A stretch of DNA of 64,000 bases. Source: a virus. The stretch lies in the IMG/VR virus record IMGVR_UViG_3300036398_002324; one strand, 5' to 3'. Shown here piece after piece: positions 14,369 through 39,800 of this stretch. Both the position numbers and the translations under genes were made by a program. How positions within the stretch are numbered: position 1 is the first letter of the stretch; each line of letters opens with the position of its first letter. The notes beneath the pieces were generated by a model that did no database searches, was not told the DNA's origin, and was given only the letters and a program-made list of their open reading frames with translations.

Positions 14369-15544
14369 ATGTCAAAAATTAAGTTATCAGAATTAACTGA
14401 ATTAACATCACCATCGTCTAATACGAAAAATACATTTTTTCTAGTGACGGATACCGAATCTGGTATTCCTGTTTCTAAAAAGATGTCCGCTTTTACATTA
14501 GATACTTTGTTAGACACAACACAAGGTCAAGCAAACTTGGCGTTCAATCATGCAAATTCTGGTTTCATTCAAGCCAATTCTGCATACAGGCACGTAAATT
14601 CTGCTTTTAATCACGCAAATTCTGGTTTCATTCAAGCCAATTCGGCATTTAATTTTGCCAATGGTGCTGCAATTGCAGCCAACACACCATCACATGTAGC
14701 AAACTCTGCTGCCATATATGCTAATGGAGCATTCGCTGCTGCTAACGCAGCGTCTGCAACTGATGCAACACAAAACAATAATATTGTTGCAGCATTTGCA
14801 CACGCTAATTCAGCATTTCTTGCTGCAAATACTCCATCACATGTGGCAAATTCTGCTGCAATCTACGCCAATGGTGCTTTCATTGCTGCAAATACTCCAT
14901 CACATGTGGCAAATTCTGCTGCAATCTATGCTAACGGAGCATTCAATGCAGCAAACGTAGAAAGTGGAATTAATTTAACACAAAATAACAGTATAAGTGC
15001 GGTTTTCATACATGCCAATTCATCTTTTGATTTTGCAAATGGTGTTTCGATTGCTGCAAACACACCATCATATACAGCAAACTCTTCGGGTTCTTATGCA
15101 AACTCAGCATTTATACATGCAAATTCTGCTTTTGATGTTGCGAATGCTGCAAGCACAACCAACATAACACAAAATAATAATATTTCAGCAGCATTCGCAC
15201 ACGCAAACGCAGCTTTTGACGTAGCCAATACAAACACAAACGTTGTCGCTGTGTATGAACAAGCAAATGCCGCTTTTATTACAGCAAACAGTGGATTTAT
15301 ACAAGCCAATGCATCATTCGACCATGCCAATTCTGGATTTATACAAGCCAATGCATCATTTGACCATGCCAATTCTGGATTTATTCATGCCAATTCTGCG
15401 TTTGATGCTGCAAATACGGCGGATGATTATAGCGCAGCAAATACTCAACTATGGGCAAATCCCGCACCCGTAACTGTTCAGACAGCAATTGACCGTCTTG
15501 TAGCTGTTGTCTTTGCGTTAAATAGTAACACTCCAATACCATAA
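14369..15544 (+). CDS. Fibre-like virion protein made mostly of ANxAF heptad repeats
   Basis: MSKIKLSELTEL N-terminus, then a long run of HANSAF/ANTPSHVANSAAIYANGAF repeats. Confidence 0.75.
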   Translation: MSKIKLSELTELTSPSSNTKNTFFLVTDTESGIPVSKKMSAFTLDTLLDTTQGQANLAFNHANSGFIQANSAYRHVNSAFNHANSGFIQANSAFNFANGAAIAANTPSHVANSAAIYANGAFAAANAASATDATQNNNIVAAFAHANSAFLAANTPSHVANSAAIYANGAFIAANTPSHVANSAAIYANGAFNAANVESGINLTQNNSISAVFIHANSSFDFANGVSIAANTPSYTANSSGSYANSAFIHANSAFDVANAASTTNITQNNNISAAFAHANAAFDVANTNTNVVAVYEQANAAFITANSGFIQANASFDHANSGFIQANASFDHANSGFIHANSAFDAANTADDYSAANTQLWANPAPVTVQTAIDRLVAVVFALNSNTPIP

Positions 15545-23662: not shown

Positions 23663-26600
23663 GTGAAAATAGACCAACTTACATCCGCAAACACTTTTGA
23701 AGAGTGGTTGTCAACAACTTCCGGATTAATTGCTGTTGCTAATAATCTTACCAACAATACTTACGGTGGATTTTTAGCAAACTCTTCAATCTCAATTGAA
23801 GGTAATCAATCTTCAATTAATGTTCGAACACATGCGAACATTAATACACTGAGGGCAAACACGGGCAATATTGCTAATTCTTATTTTGGAAAAAGCAATG
23901 CATCGGTTGAATTAGATTTAACCGTTGGAAGAAAACTAACAGCCAATACTCTTTACGCTGATACGATTTTTGTTTTTAACAATTTAGATGAAGCAATAAG
24001 TGTATATGATCAGGCAAATGCACAATTTATACATGCAAACTCTACTTTCGTTCAATCAAATTCTGCATATAATCATACAAATTCATCCTTTAATCATGCA
24101 AACGCAGAATTTGTAAAATCTAACTCCGCATTTGTTCGTTCCAATTCTGCATTCATACAATCTAATGCAGTTTATAATCACGCAAATAGCCAATTTATAC
24201 AATCCAATGCTGCATATAATCATGTAAATTCTTCATTTAATCATGCCAATTCTAGTTTTATTAAAGTTAATACGGCATTTGATTATACAAATTCACAGTT
24301 TATACAATCGAATGCTGCATTTGCTTTGAGTAATGCTGCATTTGTTCAAGCAAATGTAACGTTTCCTCAAGCCAATTTATCATTTGCTGCTGCCAATTCT
24401 CAATTTGCATACGCAAATGTTGTGTTAACACAATCGAATTCAGCATTCATTCGTGCTAATAATTCATTAGATGCAAACAATGGCGGATTGGTAACTGCTA
24501 CACCTGCATTTTCAACTTATTCATTGGTCTATACTCGATTTTTTGGCCAGTCTTATGGCGGTGGTGTTCTTGCACCTAATGGTGATGTGCATTTTGTACC
24601 TCTTCAAGCTGATATAGGACAAAAGATATCTGCTGCTGGTGTAGTATCAACATATTCGTTAGCTTATACAACATCTGCGGCTTCTGGTATTCATAATGGT
24701 GGTGTTCTAGCAACTAATGGAGACATTCACTTTGTTCCCAATAGTTCAAGAGTTGGACAAAAAATATCTTCTGCTGGTGTTGTATCGACTTACTCATTAG
24801 CATATACTACCACAAGTGCTTATGCAGGTGGTGTTCTAGCAACTAATGAAGAAATTTACTTTGTTCCTAATTTTGCAAGAGTTGGACAAAAAATCTCTTC
24901 CGCTGGTGTAGTTTCAACTTATTCATTAGTATATACAACTTCTTCCGCTTATCAAGGTGGTGTTCTTGCACAAAATGGTGACATTCACTTTGTTCCTAAT
25001 AGAGCAATAGTAGGACAAAAAATATCATCTAGCGGCGTTGTCACAACTTATTCTTTGGTATATACCACTGTTTTAGGCGCTTATGCAGGTGGTGTTCTTG
25101 CACCCAATGGTGATATTCATTTTATTCCTCTTAGTGCTAGAGTAGGACAAAAAGTATCATCTGCTGGTGTGGTATCTACTTATTCATTGCTGTATACGGT
25201 AACTAATGCTTATGTTGATGGTGTTCTTGCACCAAATGGAGATATACATTTTGTGCCTTTTAATGCTAACAGAGGACAAAAAATAACATCTGACGGTATT
25301 GTTTTAACGTATGCATTACCATCTATCGCTGCCAGTGGATTTTTTGGCGGAGTTTTAAATACAAATAAAGAACTAATTCCAGTTCCATATTCCAGTAGTT
25401 TTGGATTAAAATTAGACTTATCAAAGACATATTCATATGATTTCGCTAATCTTACAATAAGATCGACTGAAGGTATAAAAACTGAAGTTGCTGCTGGACA
25501 AGATTCTATCATAATCAAAAATCCTATTGGTGGAACAGGAGCAAATACCGCAAATCTAACACCAAACACATTGACTGCAAATGTGACTGTAACTATTCCA
25601 AATGAATCCTTTACAGTAGGTTTCAGAAATATACCAAAAGCAAATGCATTCGTTTACTCTGATATAGTTTCAACATATGCACTAGTATACACTAGTACAA
25701 CTCCAGCAGTTTATTCTGGTGGTGTTCTTGATCCAAATGGTGATGTTCATTTTGTTGCGTTTAATGCGCCAGTTGGACAAAAAGTATCTACAGCCGGTGT
25801 GGTATCAACATATTCGTTAGTATATACAACTGGTGGGTCATATTCTGGTGGTGTTCTTGCACAGAATGGTGATATACATTTTGTTCCTTTTCTTGCCAAT
25901 AGAGGACAAAAAGTATCATCGGCTGGTGTAGTATCCACTTATTCGTTGGTATACACAACGAGTCGTGCATATGCTGGTGGCGTTCTTGCACCTAATGGTG
26001 ATATTCATTTTGTTCCCCGTAGCGCAAACAGAGGACAAAAAATATCATCGGCTGGTGTAGTATCCACTTATTCGTTGGTATACACAACGAGTTTTGCATA
26101 CTGGGGTGGTGTTCTTGCACCAAATGGCGACATCCATTTTATTCCTCAAGATGCAAATAGAGGGCAAAAAATATCCGCATCGGGTGTTGTGTCAACATAT
26201 TCACTAGCATATACTACTTCGAGCGCATATTATGGTGGTGTTCTTGATTCAAATGGTGACATACATTTTGCTCCATATAACGCAAATAGAGGACAAAAAG
26301 TTTCTGCTTCTGGTGTAGTATCCACTTATTCAATTTTATTTAACGTGCTGGAACAAAGTGCTTATAATGGTGGTGTTCTTGCACCGAATGGTGACATTCA
26401 TTTTCTTCCTGGTGATGCTAATAGAATATTAAAAATATCATCTTCTGGAATAATATCCACTTATGCAGTTGCCACACCTCTTGATTATAGTGGTGGTGTT
26501 CTTGCACCAAATGGTGAAGTTCATCTTGCTCCAGACGATGGTTTTCGTGGTCAAAAAATAACATTATCAACCGAACACACGCTTGGTAGAGATGATTTAG

Positions 26601-26857
26601 GTAAACAAGTTAAATCTTCAACATTTGCAACAATAAACATTCCAGCAGCAACATTTACTGATGGTGATGTGATCACGATTGTAAATAACGGTAGAGGAAA
26701 CGTTAATATTAATTGTGGAGCTATAACAACGTCATATATTGCGGGAATAAATACAGATGTATCTCGTGTTAAAATTGGTCCAAGAGGTATCGTAACAATC
26801 ATGTTTACAGACATTGACAGTTGTGTTTTATCTGGAACAATAATAGAATTAGAGTAA
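23663..26857 (+). CDS. Tail-fibre/adhesin-like protein: heptad stalk plus two inserted 7-repeat (beta-propeller-like) domains
   Basis: GTG start. N-terminal ANTFEEW motif, xxNxAF heptads, 2x7 copies of STYSLVYT..AYxGGVLAPNGDIHFVP..A..GQKIS..GVV. Scaffold is paralogous to 26877-28202. Confidence 0.8.
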   Translation: MKIDQLTSANTFEEWLSTTSGLIAVANNLTNNTYGGFLANSSISIEGNQSSINVRTHANINTLRANTGNIANSYFGKSNASVELDLTVGRKLTANTLYADTIFVFNNLDEAISVYDQANAQFIHANSTFVQSNSAYNHTNSSFNHANAEFVKSNSAFVRSNSAFIQSNAVYNHANSQFIQSNAAYNHVNSSFNHANSSFIKVNTAFDYTNSQFIQSNAAFALSNAAFVQANVTFPQANLSFAAANSQFAYANVVLTQSNSAFIRANNSLDANNGGLVTATPAFSTYSLVYTRFFGQSYGGGVLAPNGDVHFVPLQADIGQKISAAGVVSTYSLAYTTSAASGIHNGGVLATNGDIHFVPNSSRVGQKISSAGVVSTYSLAYTTTSAYAGGVLATNEEIYFVPNFARVGQKISSAGVVSTYSLVYTTSSAYQGGVLAQNGDIHFVPNRAIVGQKISSSGVVTTYSLVYTTVLGAYAGGVLAPNGDIHFIPLSARVGQKVSSAGVVSTYSLLYTVTNAYVDGVLAPNGDIHFVPFNANRGQKITSDGIVLTYALPSIAASGFFGGVLNTNKELIPVPYSSSFGLKLDLSKTYSYDFANLTIRSTEGIKTEVAAGQDSIIIKNPIGGTGANTANLTPNTLTANVTVTIPNESFTVGFRNIPKANAFVYSDIVSTYALVYTSTTPAVYSGGVLDPNGDVHFVAFNAPVGQKVSTAGVVSTYSLVYTTGGSYSGGVLAQNGDIHFVPFLANRGQKVSSAGVVSTYSLVYTTSRAYAGGVLAPNGDIHFVPRSANRGQKISSAGVVSTYSLVYTTSFAYWGGVLAPNGDIHFIPQDANRGQKISASGVVSTYSLAYTTSSAYYGGVLDSNGDIHFAPYNANRGQKVSASGVVSTYSILFNVLEQSAYNGGVLAPNGDIHFLPGDANRILKISSSGIISTYAVATPLDYSGGVLAPNGEVHLAPDDGFRGQKITLSTEHTLGRDDLGKQVKSSTFATINIPAATFTDGDVITIVNNGRGNVNINCGAITTSYIAGINTDVSRVKIGPRGIVTIMFTDIDSCVLSGTIIELE

Positions 26858-26876
26858 TTATTTTTAGAAAACAAAA

Positions 26877-28202
26877 ATGGCAATAAATCAACTATCAACT
26901 TCGAATACATTTACAGACTGGTTGCAAGCAACTTCTTCATTAATTGAAGTTGCCAACAGTCTTACAAGTAATGCTAGTGGCGGTCTTATTGCCAACTCTT
27001 CAATCTTCATTCAAGGTGAAGGTGCATCATTAAACGTTCGTACACTTGCGAATATTAATACTCTGCAAGCAAATACTGCAAACATTGGTAATACCAGATT
27101 TAGTGAGAGTAATGTAAATATTCAACTAGATTTAACTGTTGGAAGAAATTTATCGACAGTTAGTATTTACGCAAACGAGATTTATCAGAAGGGTGCAAAT
27201 CTTCTACCGCTAATACAAAAGGTGCAACCCGCATATGATCACGCAAATGCTGGATTTATTCATGCAAACTCTGGTTTTATAAAAACCAATTCTGCATATG
27301 ATTCTGTAAATGCAGCATTTATACATGCCAATTCTGGTTTTATTCAAACTAATGCTGCGTTTGACCATGCTAATTCTGGTTTCATTCAAGCCAACTCAGC
27401 GTTTGTACATGCTAATTTTGGATTCACGCAAACCAACACAGCTTACACTCAAACAAATGCTGCTTTTATTACAGCAAACAGTGGATTTATTCAAACCAAT
27501 GCAGCATTTGACCACGCTAATTCAGGATTTATTCAAGCTAACACTTCTTTTGCACGTACTAATGCTGCATTCAATCATGCGAATTCAGGATTCATACAAG
27601 CAAACGCTGCATTTGATCATGCTAATTCTGGATTCATTCAAGCCAATGCAGCATTCAATAGTGCAAATGCTGCATTTATTCGTGCCAATAACTCCTTAGA
27701 TGCAAACAATGGTGGTATTGTTACTGGTAATGTTATCGTTAGATCATCTGTCGGTATAAAAGTAGAAAATGATATTTTACAAGATGCTATTATTCTAAAA
27801 GGCAGAAATGGTGGAACTAGTTCATATTCTGCAACACTTGTACCAGACACACTTACAAGTAACGTTACTGTTACGATTCCGGGTGAAAATTTCACTGTTG
27901 GTTTTAGAAACATACCATCGGCTGGAGATAAAACATTTTATACTTTACAAGTTTCTGATGTTGGAAAATATATTAAAGTTGCTGGTACAATCACGATACC
28001 AAACAACACATTTTCAGAAAATGATGTTGTAACACTTTATAATAATACAAGCACTAGCAAAACAATAACATGTGATATAGCTGTAGCTTACATTGCAGCA
28101 TTTGATACTGATGTTTCTAGTGTATCTCTTTCACCAAGAGGCATTGCAACAATTTTGTTTACAACTTCTAATAGTTGTGTGATTATGGGGAATGCTATAT
28201 AA
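26877..28202 (+). CDS. Tail-fibre-like protein (insertion-free paralogue of 23663-26857)
   Basis: MAINQLSTSNTFTDWL N-terminus, ANxAF heptads, ANNSLDANNGG, FTVGFRNIP and a PRGIATILF C-terminal domain. Confidence 0.8.
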   Translation: MAINQLSTSNTFTDWLQATSSLIEVANSLTSNASGGLIANSSIFIQGEGASLNVRTLANINTLQANTANIGNTRFSESNVNIQLDLTVGRNLSTVSIYANEIYQKGANLLPLIQKVQPAYDHANAGFIHANSGFIKTNSAYDSVNAAFIHANSGFIQTNAAFDHANSGFIQANSAFVHANFGFTQTNTAYTQTNAAFITANSGFIQTNAAFDHANSGFIQANTSFARTNAAFNHANSGFIQANAAFDHANSGFIQANAAFNSANAAFIRANNSLDANNGGIVTGNVIVRSSVGIKVENDILQDAIILKGRNGGTSSYSATLVPDTLTSNVTVTIPGENFTVGFRNIPSAGDKTFYTLQVSDVGKYIKVAGTITIPNNTFSENDVVTLYNNTSTSKTITCDIAVAYIAAFDTDVSSVSLSPRGIATILFTTSNSCVIMGNAI

Positions 28203-30673
28203 TGGCAGTTATTTTTAGAAATAGAGTTTATGGTATTACTGACCAATACGCCACTCAAAATACTTATTTTCAATTAACAGGTCCTGTTGGTCTTCCAACA
28301 GGACTAAGCTCTGGTCAAGCGTACTGGAGAATTGATGGTGCAGGAACAGGCTTTGGTCTTAGCAATGTTGCATCCGGAAATAGTATATATTATTCTATGA
28401 GTACGGGAACTGATTGGGAAGTTGGAAAAGGTAGACTGTATATTTCTGATTTTAGAGTTTACACTCAAAGGGCTTCATATACAATCAGTGATGCGTATTC
28501 GGATGGTGTTCTTGGAAATGATGGTTACATTCATTTTGTTCCATACAATGCGACTGTTGGACAAAAGATATCCGACGCTGGTGTAGTGTCAACCTATTCA
28601 TTAATTTACACCACTGCTGGTGCTTATGTTGGTGGTGTTCTTGGTGATGATGGTCATGTTTATTTTGTTCCCCACAATGCAAGAGTTGGACAAAAAGTAG
28701 ATTTCAATGGTACTGTATCAACCTATTCATTAGTATATACAACGGCTGGAGCGTATGCCGGCGGCGTTCTGGATCCATTTCAACAAGATCATATTCATTT
28801 TGTTCCACACAATGCTAATAGGGGACAACGAGTTGGCCAAGGAACAGATTATGGTTTAGTTTCAACTTATTCATTACCCTATACAACAGCTGGTGCATAT
28901 TGGGGTGGATTTCAAGGTCCATTTGCTGCAAACTTTGTTAATTATAATGCAAACCGAGGAATGAAAGTAGAGGCTAATACTGATCCCGAAACAACAACAT
29001 CAGCGCCTCCAGTAATTACAACATATACATTACCCTATACCGCTGCTGGTGCTTATCGAGGCGCTGTTTTAGATTATTTAGGTAATGCTCATTATGTTCC
29101 ATACAATGCGAATAGGGGTACTTATAATCAAGACGGAGTAGTTGAAAATATTGTAACGACATATTCACTTGCATATACAACAACGGGTGCATATTCTGGT
29201 GGTGTTTTAGACGACCTAGGTCGTCCACAAATTTTGCCTGATGGTTCTGAAGACAGTGGTCCCAGTATTCATTTTGTTCCACATAATGCAAGAGTCGGTC
29301 AGAAAATATTTCAACAATCAACTTTTGATTCAACCTTCAGTGGCATGGTAACAACATATGCTTTACCTTACACAACTACCGGAGCATATGAGGGTGGTGT
29401 AATTGAGGTGTTTTCAAAAAATATTTACTTTGTTCCACGTAATGCCAATCAAATACAAAAATTATCTTACAATACAATAACTAGAGACACAGTATATTCT
29501 TCATCAAATAATAATAATCCCGTTGATTTTGATTTTACTCCGAGCATATACGAAGGTCCTTACGTTGTTTATCCAAATGCTGTTGCCGTTGGTGGTGTTC
29601 CATCGGGGGATAACAATGAAATTGGACCGGATTTATCTGGTTGGAGAGCATTTCGTGGTTTGTTAGAACAAGGCGTTCTGGGCGGTAATGTATTTAATAA
29701 TCGTGGAGTTGGTGGAATTGTATCGACATATTCTTTGGGTTATACGCTTACTAATTCTTATCGTGGTGGTGTTCTTGCACCAAACGGAGACATTCACTTT
29801 GTTCCTTATCTGGCTAATAGAGGACAAAAAATCTCTTCATCTGGTGTCGTATCAACATATTCATTAGTTTATACTTCCGACGCTTATCTGGGTGGTGTTC
29901 TTGCACCAAATGGTGATATACATTTTATTCCTCATAGTGCTAGAGTAGGACAAAAAATTAATATAAACGGTGTTGTATCCACATATTCATTACTATATAC
30001 AACGCTCACTTCTTATGGTGGTGGTGTTCTTGCACCAAATGGAGACGTACACTTTATTCCTTATAGTGCCGAAAGAGGACAAAAAGTCTCTGCTGCTGGC
30101 GTTGTGTCAACATATTCATTAGTTTATACCGGTCCTGCCGTTTATGGTGGTGGTGTTCTTGCGCCTAATGGCGATATACATTTTGTACCGTTACAGGGTA
30201 ACAGAGGACAAAAAATATCTGCTGCTGGCGTAGTGTCAACATATTCATTGATATATACGAATTCCGGTGGTTCTTATTGGAGTGGTGTTGTTGCACCAAA
30301 TGGTGATATACATTTTATTCCTGCCAATGCTGTTGTAGGACAAAAAATATCTATTAATGGTACCGTTTCAACATATTCGTTAGTGTATACTGCAACTCTT
30401 GCTCATGCTGGTGGTGTTCTTGCGCCAAATGGTGATATTCATTTTGTTCCTTGGTGGGGAAATCGAGGACAAAAAATATCTGCTGCTGGTGTAGTGTCAA
30501 CATATCCATTGATACATACAAATGCCACTGGTTCTCATTTTGGTGGTATTCTCAGACCTAATGGTGACATACATTTTGTACCTACAAATGCTGTTGGTCA
30601 AATGATTTCAACACTTCCTAGTACACCATTACCTATGAATGCATGTCTCAGTCCATTTTTAAACAAACTTTAA
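28202..30673 (+). CDS. Putative receptor-binding protein with two 7-repeat propeller domains
   Basis: Likely start is the ATG at 28202 (TAATG overlap). N-terminal domain WEVGKG...[insert]...TRDTVYSSSN; ends LSPFLNKL. Confidence 0.78.
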   Translation: MAVIFRNRVYGITDQYATQNTYFQLTGPVGLPTGLSSGQAYWRIDGAGTGFGLSNVASGNSIYYSMSTGTDWEVGKGRLYISDFRVYTQRASYTISDAYSDGVLGNDGYIHFVPYNATVGQKISDAGVVSTYSLIYTTAGAYVGGVLGDDGHVYFVPHNARVGQKVDFNGTVSTYSLVYTTAGAYAGGVLDPFQQDHIHFVPHNANRGQRVGQGTDYGLVSTYSLPYTTAGAYWGGFQGPFAANFVNYNANRGMKVEANTDPETTTSAPPVITTYTLPYTAAGAYRGAVLDYLGNAHYVPYNANRGTYNQDGVVENIVTTYSLAYTTTGAYSGGVLDDLGRPQILPDGSEDSGPSIHFVPHNARVGQKIFQQSTFDSTFSGMVTTYALPYTTTGAYEGGVIEVFSKNIYFVPRNANQIQKLSYNTITRDTVYSSSNNNNPVDFDFTPSIYEGPYVVYPNAVAVGGVPSGDNNEIGPDLSGWRAFRGLLEQGVLGGNVFNNRGVGGIVSTYSLGYTLTNSYRGGVLAPNGDIHFVPYLANRGQKISSSGVVSTYSLVYTSDAYLGGVLAPNGDIHFIPHSARVGQKININGVVSTYSLLYTTLTSYGGGVLAPNGDVHFIPYSAERGQKVSAAGVVSTYSLVYTGPAVYGGGVLAPNGDIHFVPLQGNRGQKISAAGVVSTYSLIYTNSGGSYWSGVVAPNGDIHFIPANAVVGQKISINGTVSTYSLVYTATLAHAGGVLAPNGDIHFVPWWGNRGQKISAAGVVSTYPLIHTNATGSHFGGILRPNGDIHFVPTNAVGQMISTLPSTPLPMNACLSPFLNKL

Positions 30674-30682
30674 AGAAAAAAT

Positions 30683-32995
30683 ATGGCTTTTGTTGCTTTA
30701 GATAGAGCGAACGTAACATCGAATACGACTGGAACTGGTACCATATTATTTGGACCTACTGTTTCGGGATATACTGATTTTTCAGATGTTGGAAATAATA
30801 ATCAAACTTATTATGCAATTACTGATGCATCAAATTTTGAGATAGGTGTTGGTACAGTAAAAACGCAGATTCCGTCAACATATTCTCTATTATATACAAG
30901 TAATAATGCATATTACGGTGGTGTACTCGCACAAAATGGTGACATACATTTTGTTCCTTCATTTGCCGAAGTTGGACAAAAGATATCTGCTTCTGGTGTA
31001 GTTTCAACATACTCATTGATATACACACAAAATACTGATAATGGAGCACATATTGGTGGTGTTCTTGCAACAAATGGAGATATTCACTTTGTTCCTAGCG
31101 GCAGTCCGGTTGGACAAAAAGTGTCTTCGTTAGGCGTAGTATCAACATATTCGTTGATATACACTACAGCATTTGCTTATCATGGTGGTGTTTTAGATTT
31201 AAATGGAGATATTCATTTTATACCAAGAGATGCACCCGTTGGACAAAAAATATCCTCGGCTGGTGTCGTGTCAACATATTCATTGGTATATACCAGATCG
31301 GATGCATACGCCGGTGGTGTTTTAGATTTAAATGGAGATATACATTTTGTTCCCAATGAATCTGAAATTGGTCAAAAAATTTCAACAACTTCGGGTGTCG
31401 TATCAACATATTCATTAGTATATACTACTTCTGATGCATATCAAAGTGGTGTTCTTGCATCCAATGGCGATGTTTATTTCATTCCGGAAAATGCTTCGGT
31501 TGGACAGAAAATATCTAAAACTGGTGTTGTGTCAACTTATTCGTTAATATACACCAACACTTTGGCATATCACGCTGGCGGAGTTCTTGCTCCCAATGGA
31601 GATATACATTTTGTTCCATATCGTTCACCCGTTGGACAAAAAATTTCAACGACCACTGGCATTGTTTCAACATATTCACTAGCTTACACCACATCGACTT
31701 CTTATTTTGGTGGTGTTTTGGATGCAAATAATAACATACAATTCGTTCCATTTGATGCAACAGTTGGACAAAAAATAACAACACCTCGAATGGAAAGAGA
31801 CTTTGTACTTGCATCAAGTAACAATGATAATAAAGTAAATTTCTCTGCTGGCACGAAAAGTGTTTATATTCCACAGCCATCAACACTAGTGCAAGGTTCC
31901 GCTGCTACGGCAGATGATTCTTCAATTGATTCGAGTTTAAATGCGTGGAAAGGACTTCAAAGAAGTTTGATGAAAAGCATTACAGCTGGAACGACATTCA
32001 AGAATCCTATTCCATCAACATATTCATTGACATATACTTTTGAAAACGCATACAGTGGCGGTGTTCTTGCAGTTAATGGTGACATCCACTTTGTACCATA
32101 TAATGTAAATATTGGACAAAAATTATCTCCAACTGGTATTAGTTCTACTTATTCTGTTATAGCTTATGGAGGTTATTGGGGCGGTGTTCTTGCGCCTAAT
32201 GGCGATATACATTTCGTACCTAACGATGCAACTGTTGGACAAAAGATATCTGCTTCTGGTGTTGTGTCAACATATTCATTAGTGTATCAAAGAGGTGAGG
32301 CGTTTGTTGGTGGTGTTGTTGCACCAAATGGAGATATACATTTCGTGCCTTGGGCTTCAAGAATAGGCCAAAAAGTATCTACCACTGGTGTAGTTTCGAC
32401 ATACTCATTGGTAAATACTGGAACCCTTGCTTATTATGAAGGTGGTGTTCTTGCACCAAATGGTGAAGTACACTTTGTTCCTTTTCTTACTCCTGTTGGA
32501 CAAAAAATATCAGCATCAGGTGTTGTGTCTACATATTCATTAGCATATACTACTACTGAAGCCTACGCTGGTGGAGTCATTGCACCCAATGGAGACATAC
32601 ATTTTGTTCCTTATGATGCAAGAGTTGGACAAAAAGTCTCTATTGATGGTGTGGTTTCGACATATTCATTAGCATACACTCGTAACAATGCATACGCTGG
32701 AGGTGTTCTTGCACCAAATGGTGAAATTCATTTTGTTCCATTTTGGGCAGCTCGTGATGATTTGGGTGTGGGAATTGGTCAAAAAATATCTTTAAATGGC
32801 GTTGCATCTACATATCCAGTTACACCAATTTCTATGGGCGCAAATCAAGGACCATATTCTTTTGGTGTTTTAGATTTTGATGGTAATATTCATTTTATTC
32901 CAGTAGGACAAAACGGCGTATCACAAAAAATATACACATTATCTAAACCCCTAGATAGTGAAATAGCACTCGGTTCATTCTTAAATAAGTTATAA
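30683..32995 (+). CDS. Putative receptor-binding protein with two 7-repeat propeller domains
   Basis: MAFVALDRANVTSNTTGTGT...FEIGVGT[insert]RDFVLASSN...VNFSAGTK; ends LGSFLNKL. Confidence 0.8.
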   Translation: MAFVALDRANVTSNTTGTGTILFGPTVSGYTDFSDVGNNNQTYYAITDASNFEIGVGTVKTQIPSTYSLLYTSNNAYYGGVLAQNGDIHFVPSFAEVGQKISASGVVSTYSLIYTQNTDNGAHIGGVLATNGDIHFVPSGSPVGQKVSSLGVVSTYSLIYTTAFAYHGGVLDLNGDIHFIPRDAPVGQKISSAGVVSTYSLVYTRSDAYAGGVLDLNGDIHFVPNESEIGQKISTTSGVVSTYSLVYTTSDAYQSGVLASNGDVYFIPENASVGQKISKTGVVSTYSLIYTNTLAYHAGGVLAPNGDIHFVPYRSPVGQKISTTTGIVSTYSLAYTTSTSYFGGVLDANNNIQFVPFDATVGQKITTPRMERDFVLASSNNDNKVNFSAGTKSVYIPQPSTLVQGSAATADDSSIDSSLNAWKGLQRSLMKSITAGTTFKNPIPSTYSLTYTFENAYSGGVLAVNGDIHFVPYNVNIGQKLSPTGISSTYSVIAYGGYWGGVLAPNGDIHFVPNDATVGQKISASGVVSTYSLVYQRGEAFVGGVVAPNGDIHFVPWASRIGQKVSTTGVVSTYSLVNTGTLAYYEGGVLAPNGEVHFVPFLTPVGQKISASGVVSTYSLAYTTTEAYAGGVIAPNGDIHFVPYDARVGQKVSIDGVVSTYSLAYTRNNAYAGGVLAPNGEIHFVPFWAARDDLGVGIGQKISLNGVASTYPVTPISMGANQGPYSFGVLDFDGNIHFIPVGQNGVSQKIYTLSKPLDSEIALGSFLNKL

Positions 32996-32998
32996 CAT

Positions 32999-34420
32999 AT
33001 GTCATTTATTGTCAGAGATTTGGTTCAAATGGGAACCGCTACAACAGGTAACAATGATTTATTATTGTTTCCTACCTCTACATCCAAGTATAGAACTTTA
33101 AATGCTTCTGATGCTAATAACAAAGTTCATTATTTCGTTACTAGTGGATCGCGTTGGGAAGTTGGAATAGGTACCATTCAAGTAAGTTCACCAGACATTT
33201 ATTCAAACGTGCAGTTTACCATAACCAGAGATGAAATTTCGGATTCTCAAGATAATGGTAGAAAAATTAATTTTCCAGCTGGCGTTAAAAATGTTACAAT
33301 AACTTTTCCTGCAGAACTTGTTCCGGGAACCATACCTACTTCAGATGATGCATCAACCACGAATAATTTAATTTCATGGCGTGGTCTAGAGAGGGAATTG
33401 AGACAGGGTGTTATAAGAGGTACGCCATTTGATAATGGTGGCGTTGGCGGTATAGTATCAACTTATTCGTTAATTTATACAACTTCTCAAGCTTATCGTG
33501 GTGGTGTTCTTGCACCTAATGGTGATATTCACTTTGTTCCAGGTTTCGCAAATAGGGGTCAAAAAGTATCTGCATCTGGTGTTGTATCGACTTATTCGTT
33601 AGTTTATACTACTGCTGGTGTTGATGGTCAAGGTGCATACTGGGGTGGTGTTCTTGCACCAAATGGCGACATCCATTTTATTCCTCATGATGCAAATAGA
33701 GGGCAAAAAATATCCGCATCGGGTGTTGTATCAACGTATTCTTTAGTTTATTCACTCACATCTGGTTATCTGGGTGGTGTTCTTGCACCAAATGGTGATG
33801 TTCATTTTGTGCCTTTTAATGCTGAGAGAGGTCAAAAAATATCTGCTGCTGGCGTTGTATCAACATATTCATTAGTATACACTAGAACCGTTGCTTATGC
33901 AGGTGGCGTTCTTGCACCCAATGGTGACATACATTTTGTTCCTTCATTTGCTGAGAGAGGTCAAAAAATATCCTCTGCTGGTGTTGTTTCAACTTATTCA
34001 TTAGTTTATACAACGGCAAATGCTGCATTTTTTGGAGGCGTTCTTGCACAGAATGGTGATATTCATTTTGTTCCTTATCGTGCCAACAGAGGGCAAAAAA
34101 TATCCTCTGCTGGTGTCGTATCAACATATTCTTTAGTTTATACTACTGGTGCGGCTTATTCTGGCGGTGTTCTTGCACCTAATGGTGATATTCATTTTAT
34201 TCGTTTTAGTGCAATCGTAGGACAAAAAGTGTCTGCTGATGGCGTTGTAACAACTTATTCTCTAATTACTACTGGAACTCAGCTACATTATGGAGGCGTT
34301 CTTGCACAGAATGGTGATATTCATTTTGCTCCTTTTTCTGGAAACATAGGACAGAAGATTTCAACGGGCATAAATATATCGCCAGGTCGAGTTTTATCGC
34401 CATTTTTTAACAAATATTAA
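32999..34420 (+). CDS. Putative receptor-binding protein with one C-terminal 7-repeat propeller
   Basis: Uninterrupted N-terminal domain (WEVGIGT...TRD...INFPAGVK), a W-containing helical linker, 7 repeats; ends LSPFFNKY. Confidence 0.8.
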   Translation: MSFIVRDLVQMGTATTGNNDLLLFPTSTSKYRTLNASDANNKVHYFVTSGSRWEVGIGTIQVSSPDIYSNVQFTITRDEISDSQDNGRKINFPAGVKNVTITFPAELVPGTIPTSDDASTTNNLISWRGLERELRQGVIRGTPFDNGGVGGIVSTYSLIYTTSQAYRGGVLAPNGDIHFVPGFANRGQKVSASGVVSTYSLVYTTAGVDGQGAYWGGVLAPNGDIHFIPHDANRGQKISASGVVSTYSLVYSLTSGYLGGVLAPNGDVHFVPFNAERGQKISAAGVVSTYSLVYTRTVAYAGGVLAPNGDIHFVPSFAERGQKISSAGVVSTYSLVYTTANAAFFGGVLAQNGDIHFVPYRANRGQKISSAGVVSTYSLVYTTGAAYSGGVLAPNGDIHFIRFSAIVGQKVSADGVVTTYSLITTGTQLHYGGVLAQNGDIHFAPFSGNIGQKISTGINISPGRVLSPFFNKY

Positions 34421-34440: not shown

Positions 34441-35787
34441 ATGTATAATCGAGACAAAATCATTAACACAATGAAAGAGATTTATAGTGAATCTAAAACA
34501 ATCAAACCGTATGTTGTAATTGCACAGCCGCGAAGAGACTTAAAAGAAACACCTGCACAAAATTTTGACGGTTATGAGGGTCTTCATATTGATTTGATGG
34601 GATTCTCTCACGGTTTCTGCAACATTGGCGGTGAAAAAGTTGACGTTGCACGAAACTATCTTATTGAACAAGCATTAGAGAGCGGTGCTAAGTATCTTTT
34701 GTTTGTTGGCGAAGATACTGTACTTCCTTATGATGGCTTTAAAAAGCTTATGAAAACTGCTGAAGAGAATCCTGGAGCAGTTGTTACAGGAGTTTATTAT
34801 ATTAAATGCTCCGATGCTATGATTATGGTTCGTGAAGAAGATTGGATTACTATTCCTAATGTTGATCCCGGTCAAGTCATTGAAGCGTGGCAAACTGGTA
34901 TGGATGTTATGTTAGTTCCGATTGATTTGCTCAAGCAAATGAAAGAAGAAGAACCAGAACTTCCTTTCTGTTGTATTGGTAATAACATCAACGACGAAAT
35001 TCCATTTATCGGTGAAGATAACTTCTTTGTGCATCGTCTACACAAGAGAGGAACAAAGCTTCTTGTAAATACAGATGTTCAATGTCTACATATGGACTTA
35101 GCAACAGGCATGTATACAGCACATCCTTCCGTTGATTTAACAAAATATTATACAAATATTAAACCAACTCGTCCACTAACATTGGATGATAAAGAGTTTA
35201 TTGACCGTCGTTGGATTGATAGATTGCCGGATGGCACAAGTTACAAATCTTTCATTCAAAGTAAATTGGATAAAAAAGAACCAATCCGTTTCAATATGGG
35301 TTCTGGCGGTGACAAGATTCCAGGATATCTGAGTGTTGATAAAAACAATAAAGATGCCGACATTAAAGTAGATGTTTTAAAAATGGATTTACCAGAAAAT
35401 GTTACAGACGAAATTCTTGCAAGTCATTTAATTGAACATTTGCCACAACATCGTGCGCCAGAGATTCTGCAAAAATGGCACAAAACATTAAAACCTTCCG
35501 GTAAACTTGTTTTAGAAACTCCGAATTTTGATGAAATGTGTAGAGATTATGTTCAATCAAAAGATGAGGTTGAAAAAAGAACTTTGATGACATGTATTTT
35601 TGGTGCTGCGGCAGAAGAAGAATCTGCTGAGACACGGGAAAAAGGTGCGTTATATCCACATCTTTGGGGTTACACACCACAATCACTTACTGATTTGTGT
35701 AAAGTAATTGGATTTAAAGACATTAAAATATTGCAACCAATAGGAAAGCATCCAGGTAAAAATTTCAGATTGGAAGCTGTTAAATAA
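34441..35787 (+). CDS. Glycosyltransferase (GT-A/GT2-like) fused to a class I SAM-dependent methyltransferase
   Basis: N-half: VDVARNYL..ALE...YLLFVGED, GVYY, GEDNFF..R, VNTDVQCLH. C-half: FNMGSG, YLSVD, EILASHLIEHL, LKPSGKLVLETPN. Confidence 0.75.
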   Translation: MYNRDKIINTMKEIYSESKTIKPYVVIAQPRRDLKETPAQNFDGYEGLHIDLMGFSHGFCNIGGEKVDVARNYLIEQALESGAKYLLFVGEDTVLPYDGFKKLMKTAEENPGAVVTGVYYIKCSDAMIMVREEDWITIPNVDPGQVIEAWQTGMDVMLVPIDLLKQMKEEEPELPFCCIGNNINDEIPFIGEDNFFVHRLHKRGTKLLVNTDVQCLHMDLATGMYTAHPSVDLTKYYTNIKPTRPLTLDDKEFIDRRWIDRLPDGTSYKSFIQSKLDKKEPIRFNMGSGGDKIPGYLSVDKNNKDADIKVDVLKMDLPENVTDEILASHLIEHLPQHRAPEILQKWHKTLKPSGKLVLETPNFDEMCRDYVQSKDEVEKRTLMTCIFGAAAEEESAETREKGALYPHLWGYTPQSLTDLCKVIGFKDIKILQPIGKHPGKNFRLEAVK

Positions 35788-36809: not shown

Positions 36810-39800
36810 ATGGCAAATACACCCATTCAAATAAAAAGATCATTAGTAACAAATACACCAGCATCTTTAAATGTTGGTGAACCCGCATATTCTTATTCAA
36901 GTAACACCCTATTCATAGGAAGCCCAAACGGAACAGGAACGATTCCAATTGGTGGATATGATACATATCTTCGTTCAATTAATTCATTAGACCGTGCTAA
37001 CTCCGCATTCGAGGCTGCAAACAGCACACTCACTGGGATTACTGCATCATTTATAAAAGCCAATGCTGCATACGATCATGCCAATGCATCTTATCAATCA
37101 CAAAATGCAACTGGTCAATATGCAAATTCTGCATTTACAGTGGCAAACGGTGCATTCATACATGCCAATTCAAGTTTTATAAAAACCAATGCATCATTTA
37201 ATCATGCGAACTCTTCATATGAGTCTCAAAATGCCACAGGACAATATGCCAATGCTGCGTTAATTCATGCGAATTCTTCATTTAATTTTGCAAACACCGT
37301 AAATGTATTTTCGTATTCAGCATATCATCATGCTAATTCTGGATTTATTCAAGCAAATTCAGCATTTATTCATGTAAACTCTTCGTTTAATTTTGCAAAT
37401 GGTGTTTCAATTGCAGCTAATACGCCATCGAACGTGGCAAACTCTGCTGCAATTTATGCTAACGGTGCATTTGTTGCTGCAAATATTGCCGATAGTAAGG
37501 CAATTAGTGCAGGTGCATATGCAAACTCTGCTTTTGCACAATCAAATGTAGCACTAATACAAGCAAACTCTGCATTTGTCCATGCGAACTCTTCATATGA
37601 GTCTCAAAATGCCACAGGAGAATATGCTAATGCTGCATTTACAGTAGCAAACGGTGCATTCATTCACGCAAATTCTGGTTTTATTCATGCGAATGCAGCA
37701 TATCAATCTCAGAATGCGACGGGTCAATATTCTAATGCTGCATTTGTTCATGCAAATAGTGCATATCAATCTCAGAATGCAACAGGTCAATATGCCAACA
37801 GTGCATTTATACATGCAAATTCTGCATTTATAAAAACAAATTCTGCTTTTGACCATGCTAATTCAGCTTTTGCACAATCCAATGTTGCATTAACACAAGC
37901 CAATGCATCATTTGATTATGCGAACTCAACATTTATTTTTGCAAATGGTGTTTCAATTGCAGCAAACACACCATCACATGTAGCCAATTCTGCTAGTGTA
38001 TATGCCAACTCTGCATTCAATTCTGCAAACATATCAGATAGTAAAGCAGTATCAGCCGGTTCTTATGCGAATTCTGCATTCATACATGCTAATTCTGCAT
38101 TTATTTTTGCAAATGGTGTTTCAATTGCAGCCAACACACCATCACATGTAGCGAACTCTGCTAGTGTATATGCCAATAGTGCTTTTGTTGCTGCTAATAT
38201 TGCCAAACAAGATTCACTGTCTGCTGGTTCATATGCAAACTCAGCATTTATACGTGCTAATTCTGCATTTAATTTTGCCAATGGTGCTGCAATTGCAGCC
38301 AACACACCATCACATGTAGCAAACTCTGCTGCCATATATGCTAATGGAGCATTTGTAAGAGCAAATACACCCTCGCATGTAGCAAACTCTGCTGCCATAT
38401 ATGCTAATGGAGCATTTATTGCAGCAAACATATCAAATAGTAAAGCAGTATCAGCCGGTTCTTATGCAAATTCTGCATTCATACATGCTAATTCTGCATT
38501 TGAGCATTCCAATTCTGGATTTATTCAAGCGAACTCTGCATTCATACATGCCAATTCTGCTTATCAATCACAGAATGCAACTGGTCAATATGCTAATGCT
38601 GCATTTGTAAGAGCAAACAATTCACTGAATGCGAATCTTGGTGGTATAATTACAGCTAATGTTACAATCAATGCTAATCTAACAACGCAAAATGTTTTTG
38701 TTGGTTCTTACATTGACCTAAACACAGCACCAAGTATTCCTGCAATAAATGAAGGTCGTTTATTTTATGATAATTATGAAAAATCGGTTGCGTTCTATGG
38801 TGATTCTGGTGAAACGATTCAAATAGGACAAAGTTTTATTCGTGTTTGGAACAATACAGGTTCTACAGTCAACAAAGGTAAAGTTGTAAGAATTGGTAAC
38901 GATGTATCAACAAATGGTTTTCCTTCCATTATACTTTCATCTGCTGATACAGCACAAAATGCAGAAGCAATTGGCTTCACAATCGCACCAATTGCAAACA
39001 ATTCATATGGATATGTTTTAGCCACTGGTGAAATTCATGACATTAACACTTCGTTGTTTAATTCTGGTCAAGAATTATTTCTATCAACAACTCCTGGGGA
39101 TTATCAAACTACACCACCTGCACCACCAAATGTTCCTATTGCTGTAGGTTATATTCTAACTTCTGATGTATCTAGTGGTTCTATTCTTGTCAATATTCAT
39201 TTGATGGAAGGCAAGAACAAATCAAATGGCGCTATTCTGTTTGGTCGAAATGGTGCAATTGATCAGGACCCAACTAAACTATATTGGGATTATGTTAATG
39301 ATCGTTTAGGTATTGATACAGACAGCCCACAAGCAAATCTACATGTTGCTGGTGATGGTTTGTTTACAGGTAATCTTACTATTACAGGAAATCTTGTAAT
39401 TAGCAATGCTCAAACAATTACTACAGACCAACTATTTGTTGGTGGTAACAATGTAATTTTGAGTGCAAATGTTACTGGTGAACCTTCACTCAATGCTGCA
39501 ATCATTGTCAATCGTGGCACATCACCTAATGCATATATTCTTTGGGATGAAACTGTTAATGAATGGTTAGCATACGAAGGCACTGGTGCAGCTGGCCATA
39601 TTCTTCTTGCAAATAAAACTGCCAACTCATGGGCAGTATATAACACTTTCGAAGCATATGAAAAAGAGTTTTATCCTATTGGTGCAAATCTTGCCAACAG
39701 TACAAACGAACAAGCTAAAGCAGGATTTGCAACTGCCAATATTGCAGAAAATTTAGCAATCGCAAGTTTCAAACACGCAAACTCTGGATTCATTCAGTCT

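Follow-up and report, generated by a model that had tools for sequence, protein, structure and literature searches.

The question raised by this locus, part of a 64,000-nucleotide stretch of viral DNA (IMG/VR record IMGVR_UViG_3300036398_002324; hereafter the window), is whether whole repeat domains have been set in frame into fibre genes whose paralogues lack them. An earlier note on the DNA had described seven domains of seven repeats in four genes. A blade HMM gave the same count: 49 blades of about 43 aa, in seven blocks of exactly seven, occur in four of five consecutive genes whose products have 1064, 441, 823, 770 and 473 aa (Table 1). The five-gene locus lies between baseplate wedge genes on one side and more fibre-like genes on the other. 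The best reading is that it belongs to the baseplate/fibre block of an uncultured T4-like myovirus and encodes two kinds of tail-fibre/receptor-binding protein. A gene of 447-459 aa follows the propeller-gene trio in all relatives examined (L054, L055, L056, L060, G1 and G2).

Table 1. Features of the five-gene locus and of the gene downstream
Feature	Residues	Position (nt)	Strand	Basis
P0001 (1064 aa), propeller blocks	282-587 and 667-969	gene 23663-26857	+	blade HMM
P0001 N-terminal region and heptad-repeat shaft (xN[SA][AG]Fxx), ending ANNGGLVT	1-278	23663..24496	+	53% identity, collinear with P0002 aa 1-283
P0001 insert 1, seven-blade propeller at shaft/S2 boundary	279-595	24497..25447	+	7 blades (HMM); missing here in six homologues
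P0001 segment S2, ending FRNIPKAN	596-661	25448..25645	+	aa 596-660 60% identical to P0002 aa 285-349
P0001 insert 2, second seven-blade propeller at S2/S3 boundary	662-968	25646..26566	+	7 blades; missing in six homologues
P0001 distal domain S3 and stop codon	969-1064	26567..26857	+	44% identity to P0002 C-terminus
P0002 (441 aa), insert-less paralogue (shaft, S2, S3)		26877..28202	+	BLASTP, distal-module alignment
P0003 (823 aa), propeller blocks	86-424 and 505-805	gene 28202-30673	+	blade HMM
P0003 N domain, first half	1-85	28202..28456	+	matches P0005 aa 39-63 around WEVGxG
P0003 hairpin-inserted propeller	86-424	28457..29473	+	7 blades (HMM), one split by extra loop
P0003 N domain, second half	425-504	29474..29713	+	32.5% identity over 80 aa to P0005 aa 74-150, E 2e-14
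P0003 terminal propeller and tail to LSPFLNKL	505-805 (propeller)	29714..30673	+	Pfam, blade HMM
P0004 (770 aa), propeller blocks	63-368 and 443-752	gene 30683-32995	+	blade HMM
P0004 N domain, first half	1-62	30683..30868	+	33% identity to P0005 aa 1-61, E 1e-11; pLDDT 82-87
P0004 hairpin-inserted propeller	63-368	30869..31786	+	7 blades; 28 strands, pLDDT 80-90
P0004 N domain, second half	369-442	31787..32008	+	43% identity to P0005 aa 77-146, E 1e-19
P0004 terminal propeller and tail to LGSFLNKL	443-752 (propeller)	32009..32995	+	blade HMM; Vgb lyase fold alignment
P0005 (473 aa), propeller block	151-457	gene 32999-34420	+	blade HMM
P0005 intact N domain, empty socket	1-150	32999..33448	+	comparison with split N domains of P0003 and P0004
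P0005 terminal propeller and tail to LSPFFNKY	151-457 (propeller)	33449..34420	+	Pfam, blade HMM
Glycosyltransferase/methyltransferase-like gene (448 aa)		34441..35787	+	PHROG glycosyltransferase 7e-8; Pfam Methyltransf_23

Forty-nine similar repeats of 129 nt are a classic assembly hazard, and repeat-rich reads might have been misjoined into chimeric genes. We give this explanation almost no credence. The same gene order, with all frames intact, is present on at least ten contigs from independent samples and assemblers (ENA, JGI, NCBI), which argues that the arrangement is not a repeat mis-assembly. Five contigs that could be read as DNA (L063-L067) are 99.96-99.99% identical to the window, and the blades, at just 60-80% DNA identity, are easily assembled.

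Sequence profiles and structure models show that the repeats form closed seven-bladed propellers of the virginiamycin-B-lyase type, as had been proposed. The Pfam family Vgb_lyase was hit with 99.6, 80.2 and 59.9 bits (cut-off 50), and its best stretch in insert 2 of the 1064-aa protein covers aa 706-956. The AlphaFold2 model of the 770-aa protein (mean pLDDT 82.4) has 28 + 28 strands, and Foldseek placed it on Vgb lyase 2z2p with a TM score of 0.90 and an rmsd of 2.5. With VIA-align, residues 440-759 matched the whole of Vgb lyase 2z2o_C (Z 33.9, rmsd 2.6, 298 aligned) and residues 62-368 the whole seven-blade propeller YncE 3vh0 (Z 27.2, rmsd 2.6, 286 aligned). Vgb itself (virginiamycin/streptogramin B lyase; PF24684; 2z2n, 2z2o, 2z2p, 2qc5) has the same closed architecture, seven blades in about 300 residues built on a related blade motif, and its fold alignments with the phage propellers reach Z 33-34, with rmsd 2.2-2.6 Å over 292-298 residues. 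However, identity is only 15-19%, and the phage propellers are parts of fibre proteins and lack an asymmetric conserved site.

The first kind of protein would be a heptad-shaft fibre with a conserved distal module at its end, running from ANNGGxVT through S2 and FRNIP to S3. Its shaft repeat also occurs in many giant fibre proteins on other viral contigs. BLASTP aligned the 1064-aa and 441-aa proteins in three collinear scaffold pieces (1-278 with 1-283, 596-660 with 285-349 and 960-1061 with 342-441). The larger protein is thus the smaller one plus two inserts, as the earlier note had it, and the two interruptions agree with the coordinates given there. Six homologues have the distal module uninterrupted, namely the 441-aa protein, the 452-aa and 455-aa proteins of the relative G1, and fibres of 2413, 2114 and 1172 aa from other phages, spread over four fibre architectures and several phages. 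Because of this contiguity, sequence comparison shows the empty state of these sites to be the ancestral one, and the two propellers would have come by insertion. In the nearest relative the gene order is 452 (empty)/455 (empty)/810/1078/1452, so that the positional counterpart of the 1064-aa gene is an empty allele. The orthologue of the 441-aa gene in G1 is the 455-aa gene (62-63% identity). No orthologue of the 1064-aa protein was singled out by sequence, identity being 50-52% to all candidates including the G1 452-aa gene, and a search among the relatives for a second doubly filled shaft fibre found none.

The second kind of protein appears to belong to a widespread family whose members have an N-terminal domain of about 140 aa, then a seven-bladed propeller and, at the C-terminus, an SPFFNK[FLY] tail. 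The terminal propeller of the 473-aa protein alone has 2738 clusters of relatives at E <= 0.001, and in all three genes the terminal propeller precedes a tail of the LSPFLNKL type. The first 105 residues of the 473-aa protein are 36% identical to a stand-alone gene annotated as 'tail fiber' in the podovirus MW202481.1. The N domain, intact here, is split in the 823-aa and 770-aa proteins, in both of them between WEVGxG and TxxRD. The propeller inserted in the 823-aa protein is the most diverged block, with extra loops and 48-53% identity to the other blocks. The claim of a single module type at three insertion sites, in two scaffolds unrelated to each other, besides its usual C-terminal position, is therefore borne out.

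Whether the interrupted scaffolds rejoin is a matter of model confidence. In the model of the 770-aa protein the N-domain strands flanking the insert have pLDDT 82-87 and are joined to it by 3-residue linkers; strand 369-378 lies at about 85 and residues 400-440 at 50-58. When the two N-domain halves were co-folded, the ipSAE was 0.32, whereas none of three controls scored above 0.00; the tool rates 0.32 as weak support. Of 80 solved complexes 58 reach this mark, as do 2 of 110 mismatched pairs, scores up to 0.60 coming from just 7 of the solved complexes and from both mismatches. The runs agreed in at least 85% of contacts, with a partner pLDDT of 50-51. Strand confidence and co-folding thus weakly suggest that the N-domain scaffold may be kept around its insert. 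The monomer model of the 1064-aa protein is poor (mean pLDDT 59, S2 about 30, propellers mis-modelled), so that support for rejoining halves is confined to the N domain, where it comes from model confidence and the weak complex score. The S3 domain of the 1064-aa protein was modelled at pLDDT 83-89, and its fold is close to that of beta-sandwich domains from phage spikes and fibres: the Pa223 capsid spike (9ny6_C, Z 11.4, rmsd 2.7, 94 aligned), the KP1 baseplate (9f4a_Le, Z 10.5) and CBA120 TSP4 (7rej, Z 9.1).

An indication that these sites accept foreign domains comes from relatives. In about 180 of them the hairpin after WEVGxGT is empty or holds LamG lectin domains (Pfam Laminin_G_3, down to E 1e-40), one to three propellers, or a domain of about 420 aa of unknown type. 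Tandem filling was seen in two genes, one with two propellers in the socket and the other with three. The N-domain HMM coordinates break at 59-65 for LamG, propeller and unknown inserts alike; at a second site they break at 37-39, and the occupant is a 5-repeat SGL-like propeller. In relatives these sites are either vacant or taken by other domains of the lectin type, so the fibres seem to carry natural plug-in sockets. Apart from the SGL type, no class is larger than that of the empty N domains (44-57 members, against 5-7 filled with propellers). At least 17 changes of fill state are required on the N-domain tree, and branches with SH-aLRT of at least 95% alone force two for propellers, three for LamG and five for SGL; the empty P0176, for example, is sister to the pair of the filled 770-aa protein and G1_1078 (SH-aLRT 98). 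As reconstructed from these sequences, fill state is shown to change repeatedly within the family.

It might be argued that the insert-less 441-aa and 473-aa genes are deletion derivatives of ancestrally filled ones. Repeats favour recombinational deletion, the insertions are old, and part of the state changes in the N-domain tree may be losses. We nevertheless consider this very unlikely: the contiguous distal modules described above span four fibre architectures, empty N domains are abundant and even stand alone in a podovirus gene, and deletion cannot explain why the unrelated LamG, SGL-like and unknown domains share the same sockets. Of the three outcomes that the earlier note held to be contrary to its view (halves that do not rejoin, repeats that form no propellers, orthologues that are always filled), none was encountered.

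Insertion is thus the preferred reading. A tree of the propeller blocks comes out star-shaped and points to no donor. Third-position identity between blocks is 0.48-0.61, close to saturation at synonymous sites, which indicates that the insertions are old. The insert junctions show neither target-site duplication nor microhomology. The 'portability' of the propeller consequently has a comparative basis, the distribution of filled and empty sites, rather than an observed transfer. Insert 2 of the 1064-aa protein shares an exact match of 54 nt (26095-26148) with the 473-aa gene. As for the route, we suggest that the propellers may have spread by recombination with adjacent paralogues and by unequal crossing-over among blades. 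The propeller would be a self-contained domain, copies of which went in frame into permissive points, two at inter-domain linkers of the 1064-aa fibre and one each at the beta-hairpin tip of the N domains of the 823-aa and 770-aa proteins. In a closed propeller the first and last strands are adjacent, so the host chain could leave and re-enter with its scaffold undisturbed.

What the propellers do may be read from their variable face. The blade frame is nearly invariant, while two loops per blade, both on one face of the propeller, are hypervariable (positions 12-14, 17, 32-33 and 35, common to every blade). Among the 49 blades of the window and 134 terminal blocks no blade-specific conserved residue was found. 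These sequence patterns suggest that the propellers bind rather than catalyse. It is unlikely, in our view, that they are enzymes akin to Vgb lyase (polysaccharide lyases, lactonases or depolymerases) digesting capsule or surface polymer with several catalytic heads per fibre. The closest solved fold and the Pfam family are indeed those of an enzyme, JGI's automatic annotation calls some relatives 'sugar lactone lactonase YvrE' or 'streptogramin lyase', and depolymerases are frequent on phage fibres. However, what is shared with Vgb is the repeated blade motif, one HMMER alignment being off by a whole blade, and hypervariable position 17 is where the catalytic His residues of Vgb fall in the alignment. 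As no blade-specific polar residue is conserved across the 134 terminal blocks, the propellers lack a shared asymmetric active site, and in relatives LamG lectin domains take the place of the propeller in the same socket. Propellers are also common platforms for protein interaction, and those described here could dock other fibres or assembly factors within the virion, like the branching adaptor domains of multi-tailspike phages, with no host contact. The likeness of S3 is to the N-terminal part of CBA120 TSP4, and the three paralogues always occur together. A conserved partner, however, predicts a conserved surface, but it is one whole face that varies between paralogues and phages over a fixed frame; inserted copies, moreover, number 0-3 among close relatives, which is hard to fit to a fixed structural role. 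We therefore hold docking to be quite improbable.

The inserted propellers are probably accessory glycan-binding heads plugged into permissive fibre sites; as lectin-type heads for surface glycans they would give the fibres more valency or further specificities. We infer the adhesin role and presence on the virion from the hypervariable face, the gene context and the LamG domains that relatives have in the same socket; ligand type, oligomeric state and insertion route are proposed with the same reserve. In short, whole seven-bladed propellers that probably bind sugars appear to have been built into loops and linkers of the phage's tail fibres. The observation of the earlier note is confirmed and its interpretation partly supported.

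Propellers in phage host recognition have a precedent in Staphylococcus phage phi11, whose Gp45 has a five-bladed platform. That protein differs in propeller family and in scaffold, and to our knowledge filled and empty paralogues side by side, or alternative occupants of one socket, are undescribed for proteins of its type. What it shares is a propeller within a host-recognition protein of a tailed phage (PMC4901313). In the umbrella toxin particles of Streptomyces, too, diversified propeller lectins on one particle set which cells are bound (PMC13274773); these are, however, bacterial toxin particles with the lectins as separate subunits, and the phage domains are inserted in fibres. The closest parallel is in lactococcal and other siphophages, where 'evolved' distal tail proteins (Dit), among other structural tail proteins, contain a carbohydrate-binding module (CBM) (PMC6669499; PMC10688798; Hayes et al. 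2018, as cited in PMC6669499). Related phages have an insert-less 'classical' form (PMC6669499). Inserted binding modules in phage tail proteins are therefore an already known principle, and the verdict that the present system resembled nothing described was too strong. In evolved Dit the insert gives ancillary host binding besides the main receptor-binding protein, and binding by the CBM was shown experimentally, whereas for the fibre propellers, known here from genes, binding is inferred. The scaffold there is Dit and the module a BppA-like CBM; here they are fibre proteins of a T4-like myovirus and a Vgb-type seven-blade propeller. There are several sockets here, up to three modules stand in tandem, and the occupants belong to at least four unrelated types.

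The window was taken from an 80-kb viral contig in IMG/VR. Among the products of its genes are T4-type baseplate wedge subunits, a tail sheath and a large terminase; the genome is that of a T4-like myovirus. The sheath is approximately 55% identical to those of Stenotrophomonas, Pelagibacter and Methylophilales myophages. The five fibre genes lie head to tail on the plus strand with intergenic gaps of 0-19 nt. Upstream of them are a gene for a 2099-aa DUF4815 protein and the baseplate wedge genes, and downstream a 448-aa glycosyltransferase/methyltransferase-like gene and a 1620-aa fibre-like gene. It might be thought that such an arrangement arose by repeat-driven mis-assembly. This is ruled out, because the exact 823-aa protein was found on at least ten contigs from different samples and assemblers, all of which keep the order 1064/441/823/770/473, and because the DNA of five readable contigs is 99.96-99.99% identical to the window. 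A megablast search with the 10.8-kb region gave no match among GenBank phages, and tblastn gave distant matches only. No copy of the T4 late-promoter motif TATAAATA was present in the region, and scans there for sigma-70 promoters and terminators were no better than chance.

An HMM built from the seven blades (repeats of about 43 aa) of the 473-aa protein P0005 detected 49 blades, arranged as seven blocks of exactly seven, just as the earlier note had claimed. The junctions proposed there proved accurate to within a few codons by BLASTP and the blade HMM, and its claim that the blocks form propellers was borne out by Pfam, by an AlphaFold2 model and by structural superposition. The Pfam family Vgb_lyase (PF24684; gathering cut-off 50 bits) scored 99.6, 80.2 and 59.9 bits with the 1064-aa protein P0001, the 823-aa protein P0003 and P0005, respectively. 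The 770-aa protein P0004 fell below the Pfam reporting threshold despite carrying the same repeats. P0004 was modelled from a full-length alignment (A3) in which insert-less relatives were correctly placed across the gap; the model has a mean pLDDT of 82.4 and 28 strands (7 x 4) per block. Its second block superposes on the whole of virginiamycin B lyase (2z2o_C; Z 33.9, rmsd 2.6 Å, 298/299 residues aligned). The first, which corresponds exactly to the insert, superposes on complete seven-bladed propellers, e.g. YncE (Z 27.2, rmsd 2.6 Å, 286 residues aligned). As modelled, the blocks are closed seven-bladed beta-propellers of about 300 residues.

P0001 and its 441-aa neighbour P0002 are collinear in three pieces in BLASTP, with breaks after ANNGGLVT and FRNIPKAN, so that the larger protein is indeed the smaller one plus two inserts, as previously claimed. 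The converse, that the insert-less genes are deletion derivatives, had already been named in the earlier note. In an alignment of shaft fibres (A4), six homologues had the distal module (ANNGGxVT, segment S2, FRNIP, segment S3) unbroken, namely P0002, two genes (452 and 455 aa) of the nearest relative, contig G1, and three fibres of other phages (2413, 2114 and 1172 aa), in which it is C-terminal. Both blocks were present in P0001 only. This is the clearest single result of the analysis, and on this alignment the blocks of P0001 are insertions and not the remnant of deletions from its paralogues. They sit at domain boundaries. The gene order of G1 is 452 (empty), 455 (empty), 810, 1078, 1452 and then a 449-aa gene; by position, the counterpart of the filled P0001 is therefore an empty gene, while sequence comparison alone does not establish orthology of P0001 with the 452-aa gene.

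A second doubly filled heptad-shaft fibre was not found; the search gave plain trios and one different architecture. In the latter, two tandem propellers precede a glycine-rich C-terminal region of about 300 aa, and the flanking genes encode a heptad-shaft protein on one side and, on the other, S3 as a separate protein of 216 aa. One example (L069) has a second propeller with apparently fewer than seven blades. In P0001 and P0002 the heptad repeat itself, xN[SA][AG]F[IDN][QH], which looks like a coiled coil or fibre shaft, recurs about 25 times. Three further genes of the window have it too, as do many giant proteins (1.4-3 kaa) encoded on other viral contigs.

S3 folds confidently and resembles beta-sandwich domains of the Pa223 spike (Z 11.4), a KP1 baseplate protein (Z 10.5) and CBA120 TSP4 (Z 9.1). 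It is 37% identical to a 'collagen like minor tail' protein of S-CBS2. S2 had no match in a word-based protein search, and profile and sequence searches of the PDB with S2-S3 gave no significant match. A model of P0001 residues 270-1064 from a 7-row alignment had a mean pLDDT of 59, with S2 unfolded and solenoid-like propeller stretches that matched beta-helix proteins. Since the alignment has no depth in these stretches, the solenoid was treated as an artefact and only S3 was used.

The other three proteins begin with an N domain of about 140 aa (motifs TGTG...GYQxF...YY...WEVGxG...SRD...SSN). The N-terminal 150 residues of P0005 align to both halves of P0003 and P0004 once the middle propeller is excised, and both are broken at the same point, between WEVGxG and TxxRD. 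The alignment thus agrees with the earlier view that the domain is intact in the 473-aa protein and split at one point in the 823- and 770-aa proteins. An N-domain HMM from 11 empty members matched P0004 and P0005 fully and P0003 partially. The domain gave one match in the word-based protein search, and no significant match in profile and sequence searches of the PDB. It is 36% identical to an annotated tail-fibre gene. A stand-alone N domain is encoded by a 162-aa gene annotated 'tail fiber' in MW202481.1, a freshwater podovirus from Manatee Spring, where it adjoins other fibre genes and a ConA-like lectin gene. The wedge genes, the fold of S3, its S-CBS2 match and the match of the N domain place the family within a tail/baseplate module and show domains shared with known fibres or spikes, as is characteristic of tail-fibre and receptor-binding proteins.

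The plain form of the family (N domain, propeller and tail) is common. Three paralogues in tandem, followed by a gene of about 450 aa, are found in the window and in G1, G2, L054, L055, L056 and L060, and L072 also has three paralogues; the trio with this gene recurs in all related contigs that were examined. The gene after the trio has weak matches to a glycosyltransferase (PHROG) and a methyltransferase (Pfam). The motif [CL]SPF[FL]NK[FLY] ends P0003, P0004, P0005 and most of the 150 representatives listed, and this conserved C-terminal tail may be a docking or assembly peptide. It was seen on nearly every terminal propeller, including most of P0007-P0155, and never on an inserted one; in the P0004 model it has low confidence.

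The same model suggests how the N domain may accommodate its insert. An N-domain strand (residues 52-60) is followed after three residues by the first propeller strand (64-68), and the last propeller strand (361-365) after three residues by N-domain strand 369-378; both flanking N-domain strands have a pLDDT of 82-87. Secondary structure and confidence values would thus fit the geometry expected for a propeller borne on a hairpin tip by adjoining ends. When the N-domain halves were co-folded as separate chains, ipSAE was 0.32, compared with a top value of 0.00 among three controls, which the tool grades as weak support (its mark is reached by 58/80 solved complexes and 2/110 mismatched pairs, with values of 0.60 or less in just 7/80 solved complexes and both mismatches). 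The runs agreed in at least 85% of contacts, with a partner pLDDT of 50-51.

Family members were gathered from an exhaustive profile search (2738 clusters, E <= 0.001), a word-based search and viral contigs, and the HMM from insert-less members was run on about 180 of them. The match is interrupted at positions 59-65, the turn of the hairpin WEVGxGTY-TSSG-TTLSRD, by propellers, LamG domains or a domain of about 420 aa with no Pfam match. Pfam Laminin_G_3 was confirmed in the LamG inserts, which have one or two copies and are sometimes combined with a propeller. A second break, at positions 37-39, holds a five-repeat SGL-like propeller. Altogether at least four unrelated module types occur: Vgb-type propeller, LamG, SGL-like propeller and the 420-aa domain. 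The sockets of the three G1 paralogues hold one, two and three propellers; blade counts are consistent with whole seven-blade propellers, a few diverged blades lying under the HMM threshold. The second socket is located between GYQSF and GNxTYY, some 25 residues before the hairpin, and was seen in L055 and 56 proteins, e.g. P0158 and P0216. Its propeller has five repeats of about 51 aa (WNISTA...PDG.KMYV) and matches Pfam SGL/Lactonase. The 420-aa insert is carried by 11 members (P0023, P0157, P0167, P0168, P0185, P0187, P0189, P0190, P0196, P0231 and P0245), which form one well-supported clade.

Coordinates of inserts, tails and associated genes
Feature	Contig or protein	Nucleotides	Residues
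Insert 1	P0001		279-595
Insert 2	P0001		662-968
Inserted propeller	P0004		62-368
Terminal block superposed on 2z2o_C	P0004		440-759
Insert of about 420 aa in hairpin socket	11 members		~64-485
Exact 54-nt match, insert 2 blade	window	26095-26148
Exact 54-nt match, P0005 blade	window	33634-33687
Terminal-propeller tails	window	30617-30670, 32939-32992, 34370-34417
Heptad repeat, P0001 and P0002	window	23990-24490, 27200-27720
Heptad repeat, further genes	window	14369-15544, 36810-41672, 6188-7156
Gene of about 450 aa after trio	window	34441-35787
Gene of about 450 aa after trio	L054	8378-9748
Gene of about 450 aa after trio	L055	8261-9634
Gene of about 450 aa after trio	L056	10129-11496
Gene of about 450 aa after trio	L060	4474-5814
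Gene with second socket filled	L055	6089-8257
Two-propeller/Gly-rich gene	L036	1575-4529
Two-propeller/Gly-rich gene	L069	3-1649
Two-propeller/Gly-rich gene	L070	482-2920
Stand-alone N domain	L068 (MW202481.1)	6001-6489

To map fill state, a quick maximum-likelihood tree was built from N domains stripped of their inserts. At least 17 changes were needed, a total that is rough because the tree was built on 138 columns. Even if just the branches with SH-aLRT of at least 95% are counted, the propeller requires 2 changes, LamG 3 and the SGL type 5, and the empty P0176 is sister to the pair of filled P0004 and G1_1078 (SH-aLRT 98). From these sequences, repeated switching of fill state is not in doubt. 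The earlier note had called for filled and empty alleles to be sought in related phages, and empty alleles were found at the shaft-fibre sites in A4 and G1, and both kinds at the hairpin among the 180 or so N-domain members.

The seven blocks are 48-70% identical in protein, with a third-codon identity of 0.48-0.61 at conserved residues, and a maximum-likelihood tree of 21 propeller blocks was a star with 1/18 branches supported. They are therefore old copies without a nameable donor; identity at variable columns gave weak hints at most. One exact match of 54 nt joins a blade of insert 2 to one of P0005, all other pairs of blocks sharing at most 17-34 nt. It spans a hypervariable codon (Trp) and may be a gene-conversion patch. 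Neither direct repeats nor duplications were found in the DNA of the insertion junctions. DGR-type targeted variation was not detected, and each of five independent contigs showed 1-3 substitutions relative to the window in 9-14 kb.

The frame of the blade (VVSTYSL.YT, GGVLAPNGDIHFVP, GQKIS) is nearly invariant in the 49 blades of the window and in 134 terminal blocks of other phages, while positions 12-14, 17, 32-33 and 35 are hypervariable in every blade. These positions lie in the loops between strands 1-2 and 3-4, both of which an up-and-down beta-meander topology would place on one propeller face. Should the blocks be enzymes like Vgb, this face ought to retain catalytic residues, which in the Staphylococcus aureus enzyme we take to be His228, Glu268, His270 and Glu284. 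HMMER aligned the two conserved His of the lyase (P)H(A/G)IT motifs in the late blades, presumably His228 and His270, to the hypervariable residue before GGVL (position 17), so that the variable face corresponds to the enzyme's substrate face. Yet the entropy at position 17 is 7-8 (0-9 scale) in every blade of the 134 blocks, no blade-specific conserved residue was found across them, and at the His positions the conserved blade-specific catalytic residues of a Vgb lyase are thus missing. This argues for propellers that bind with diversified specificity and against a shared catalytic site. That the same socket is filled in relatives by LamG lectin-type domains instead likewise argues for binding.

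Tentatively, and with rather more doubt than conviction, we propose that the N-domain hairpin, the second N-domain loop and the shaft-fibre linkers are natural sockets, where binding modules of at least four unrelated kinds have time and again been acquired, lost, stacked and swapped by tailed phages, and that they make up an undescribed plug-and-play platform for host recognition. On this reading, the three obligatory paralogues might even form one hetero-oligomer that bears a combinatorial set of heads. The host range of phages is set by fibre proteins, whose engineering is hampered by ignorance of where foreign domains fit without breaking assembly. Domain-tolerant places of this kind are marked by the family: the tip of one beta-hairpin, a further loop and two linkers between domains accept folded domains of 220-920 residues, either single or in tandem. 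The two versions, filled and empty, occur together within a single genome, and also throughout a large group of uncultured phages that probably come from fresh water. Were the inserts heads that bind glycans, valency and specificity would be tuned by addition of modules and not by swapping of tips. The propeller, whose frame is fixed and whose 14 variable loops share one face, would also make an attractive scaffold for binders.

A literature search found no published description of the N domain, propeller and SPFFNK family, and in databases its members are named 'hypothetical protein' throughout or bear automatic labels. Among described principles, the evolved Dit of siphophages, lactococcal ones among them, comes closest: an internal carbohydrate-binding module separates evolved from classical forms and aids host binding (PMC6669499, PMC10688798). 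Like evolved Dit, the fibres described here have an internal, self-contained domain of binding type and insert-less homologues in related phages, and the hypervariable face and the LamG domains at the same site lend indirect support to the idea that their inserts, too, may bind host saccharides. In contrast to evolved Dit, the five proteins have no Dit family among their Pfam and PHROG matches, and further differences lie in phage type, scaffold, module, how many sockets there are, and the way in which unrelated modules are stacked and exchanged. Provided that the inserts are heads for glycan binding, the idea behind evolved Dit would extend from siphophages of Gram-positive hosts to T4-like myoviruses.
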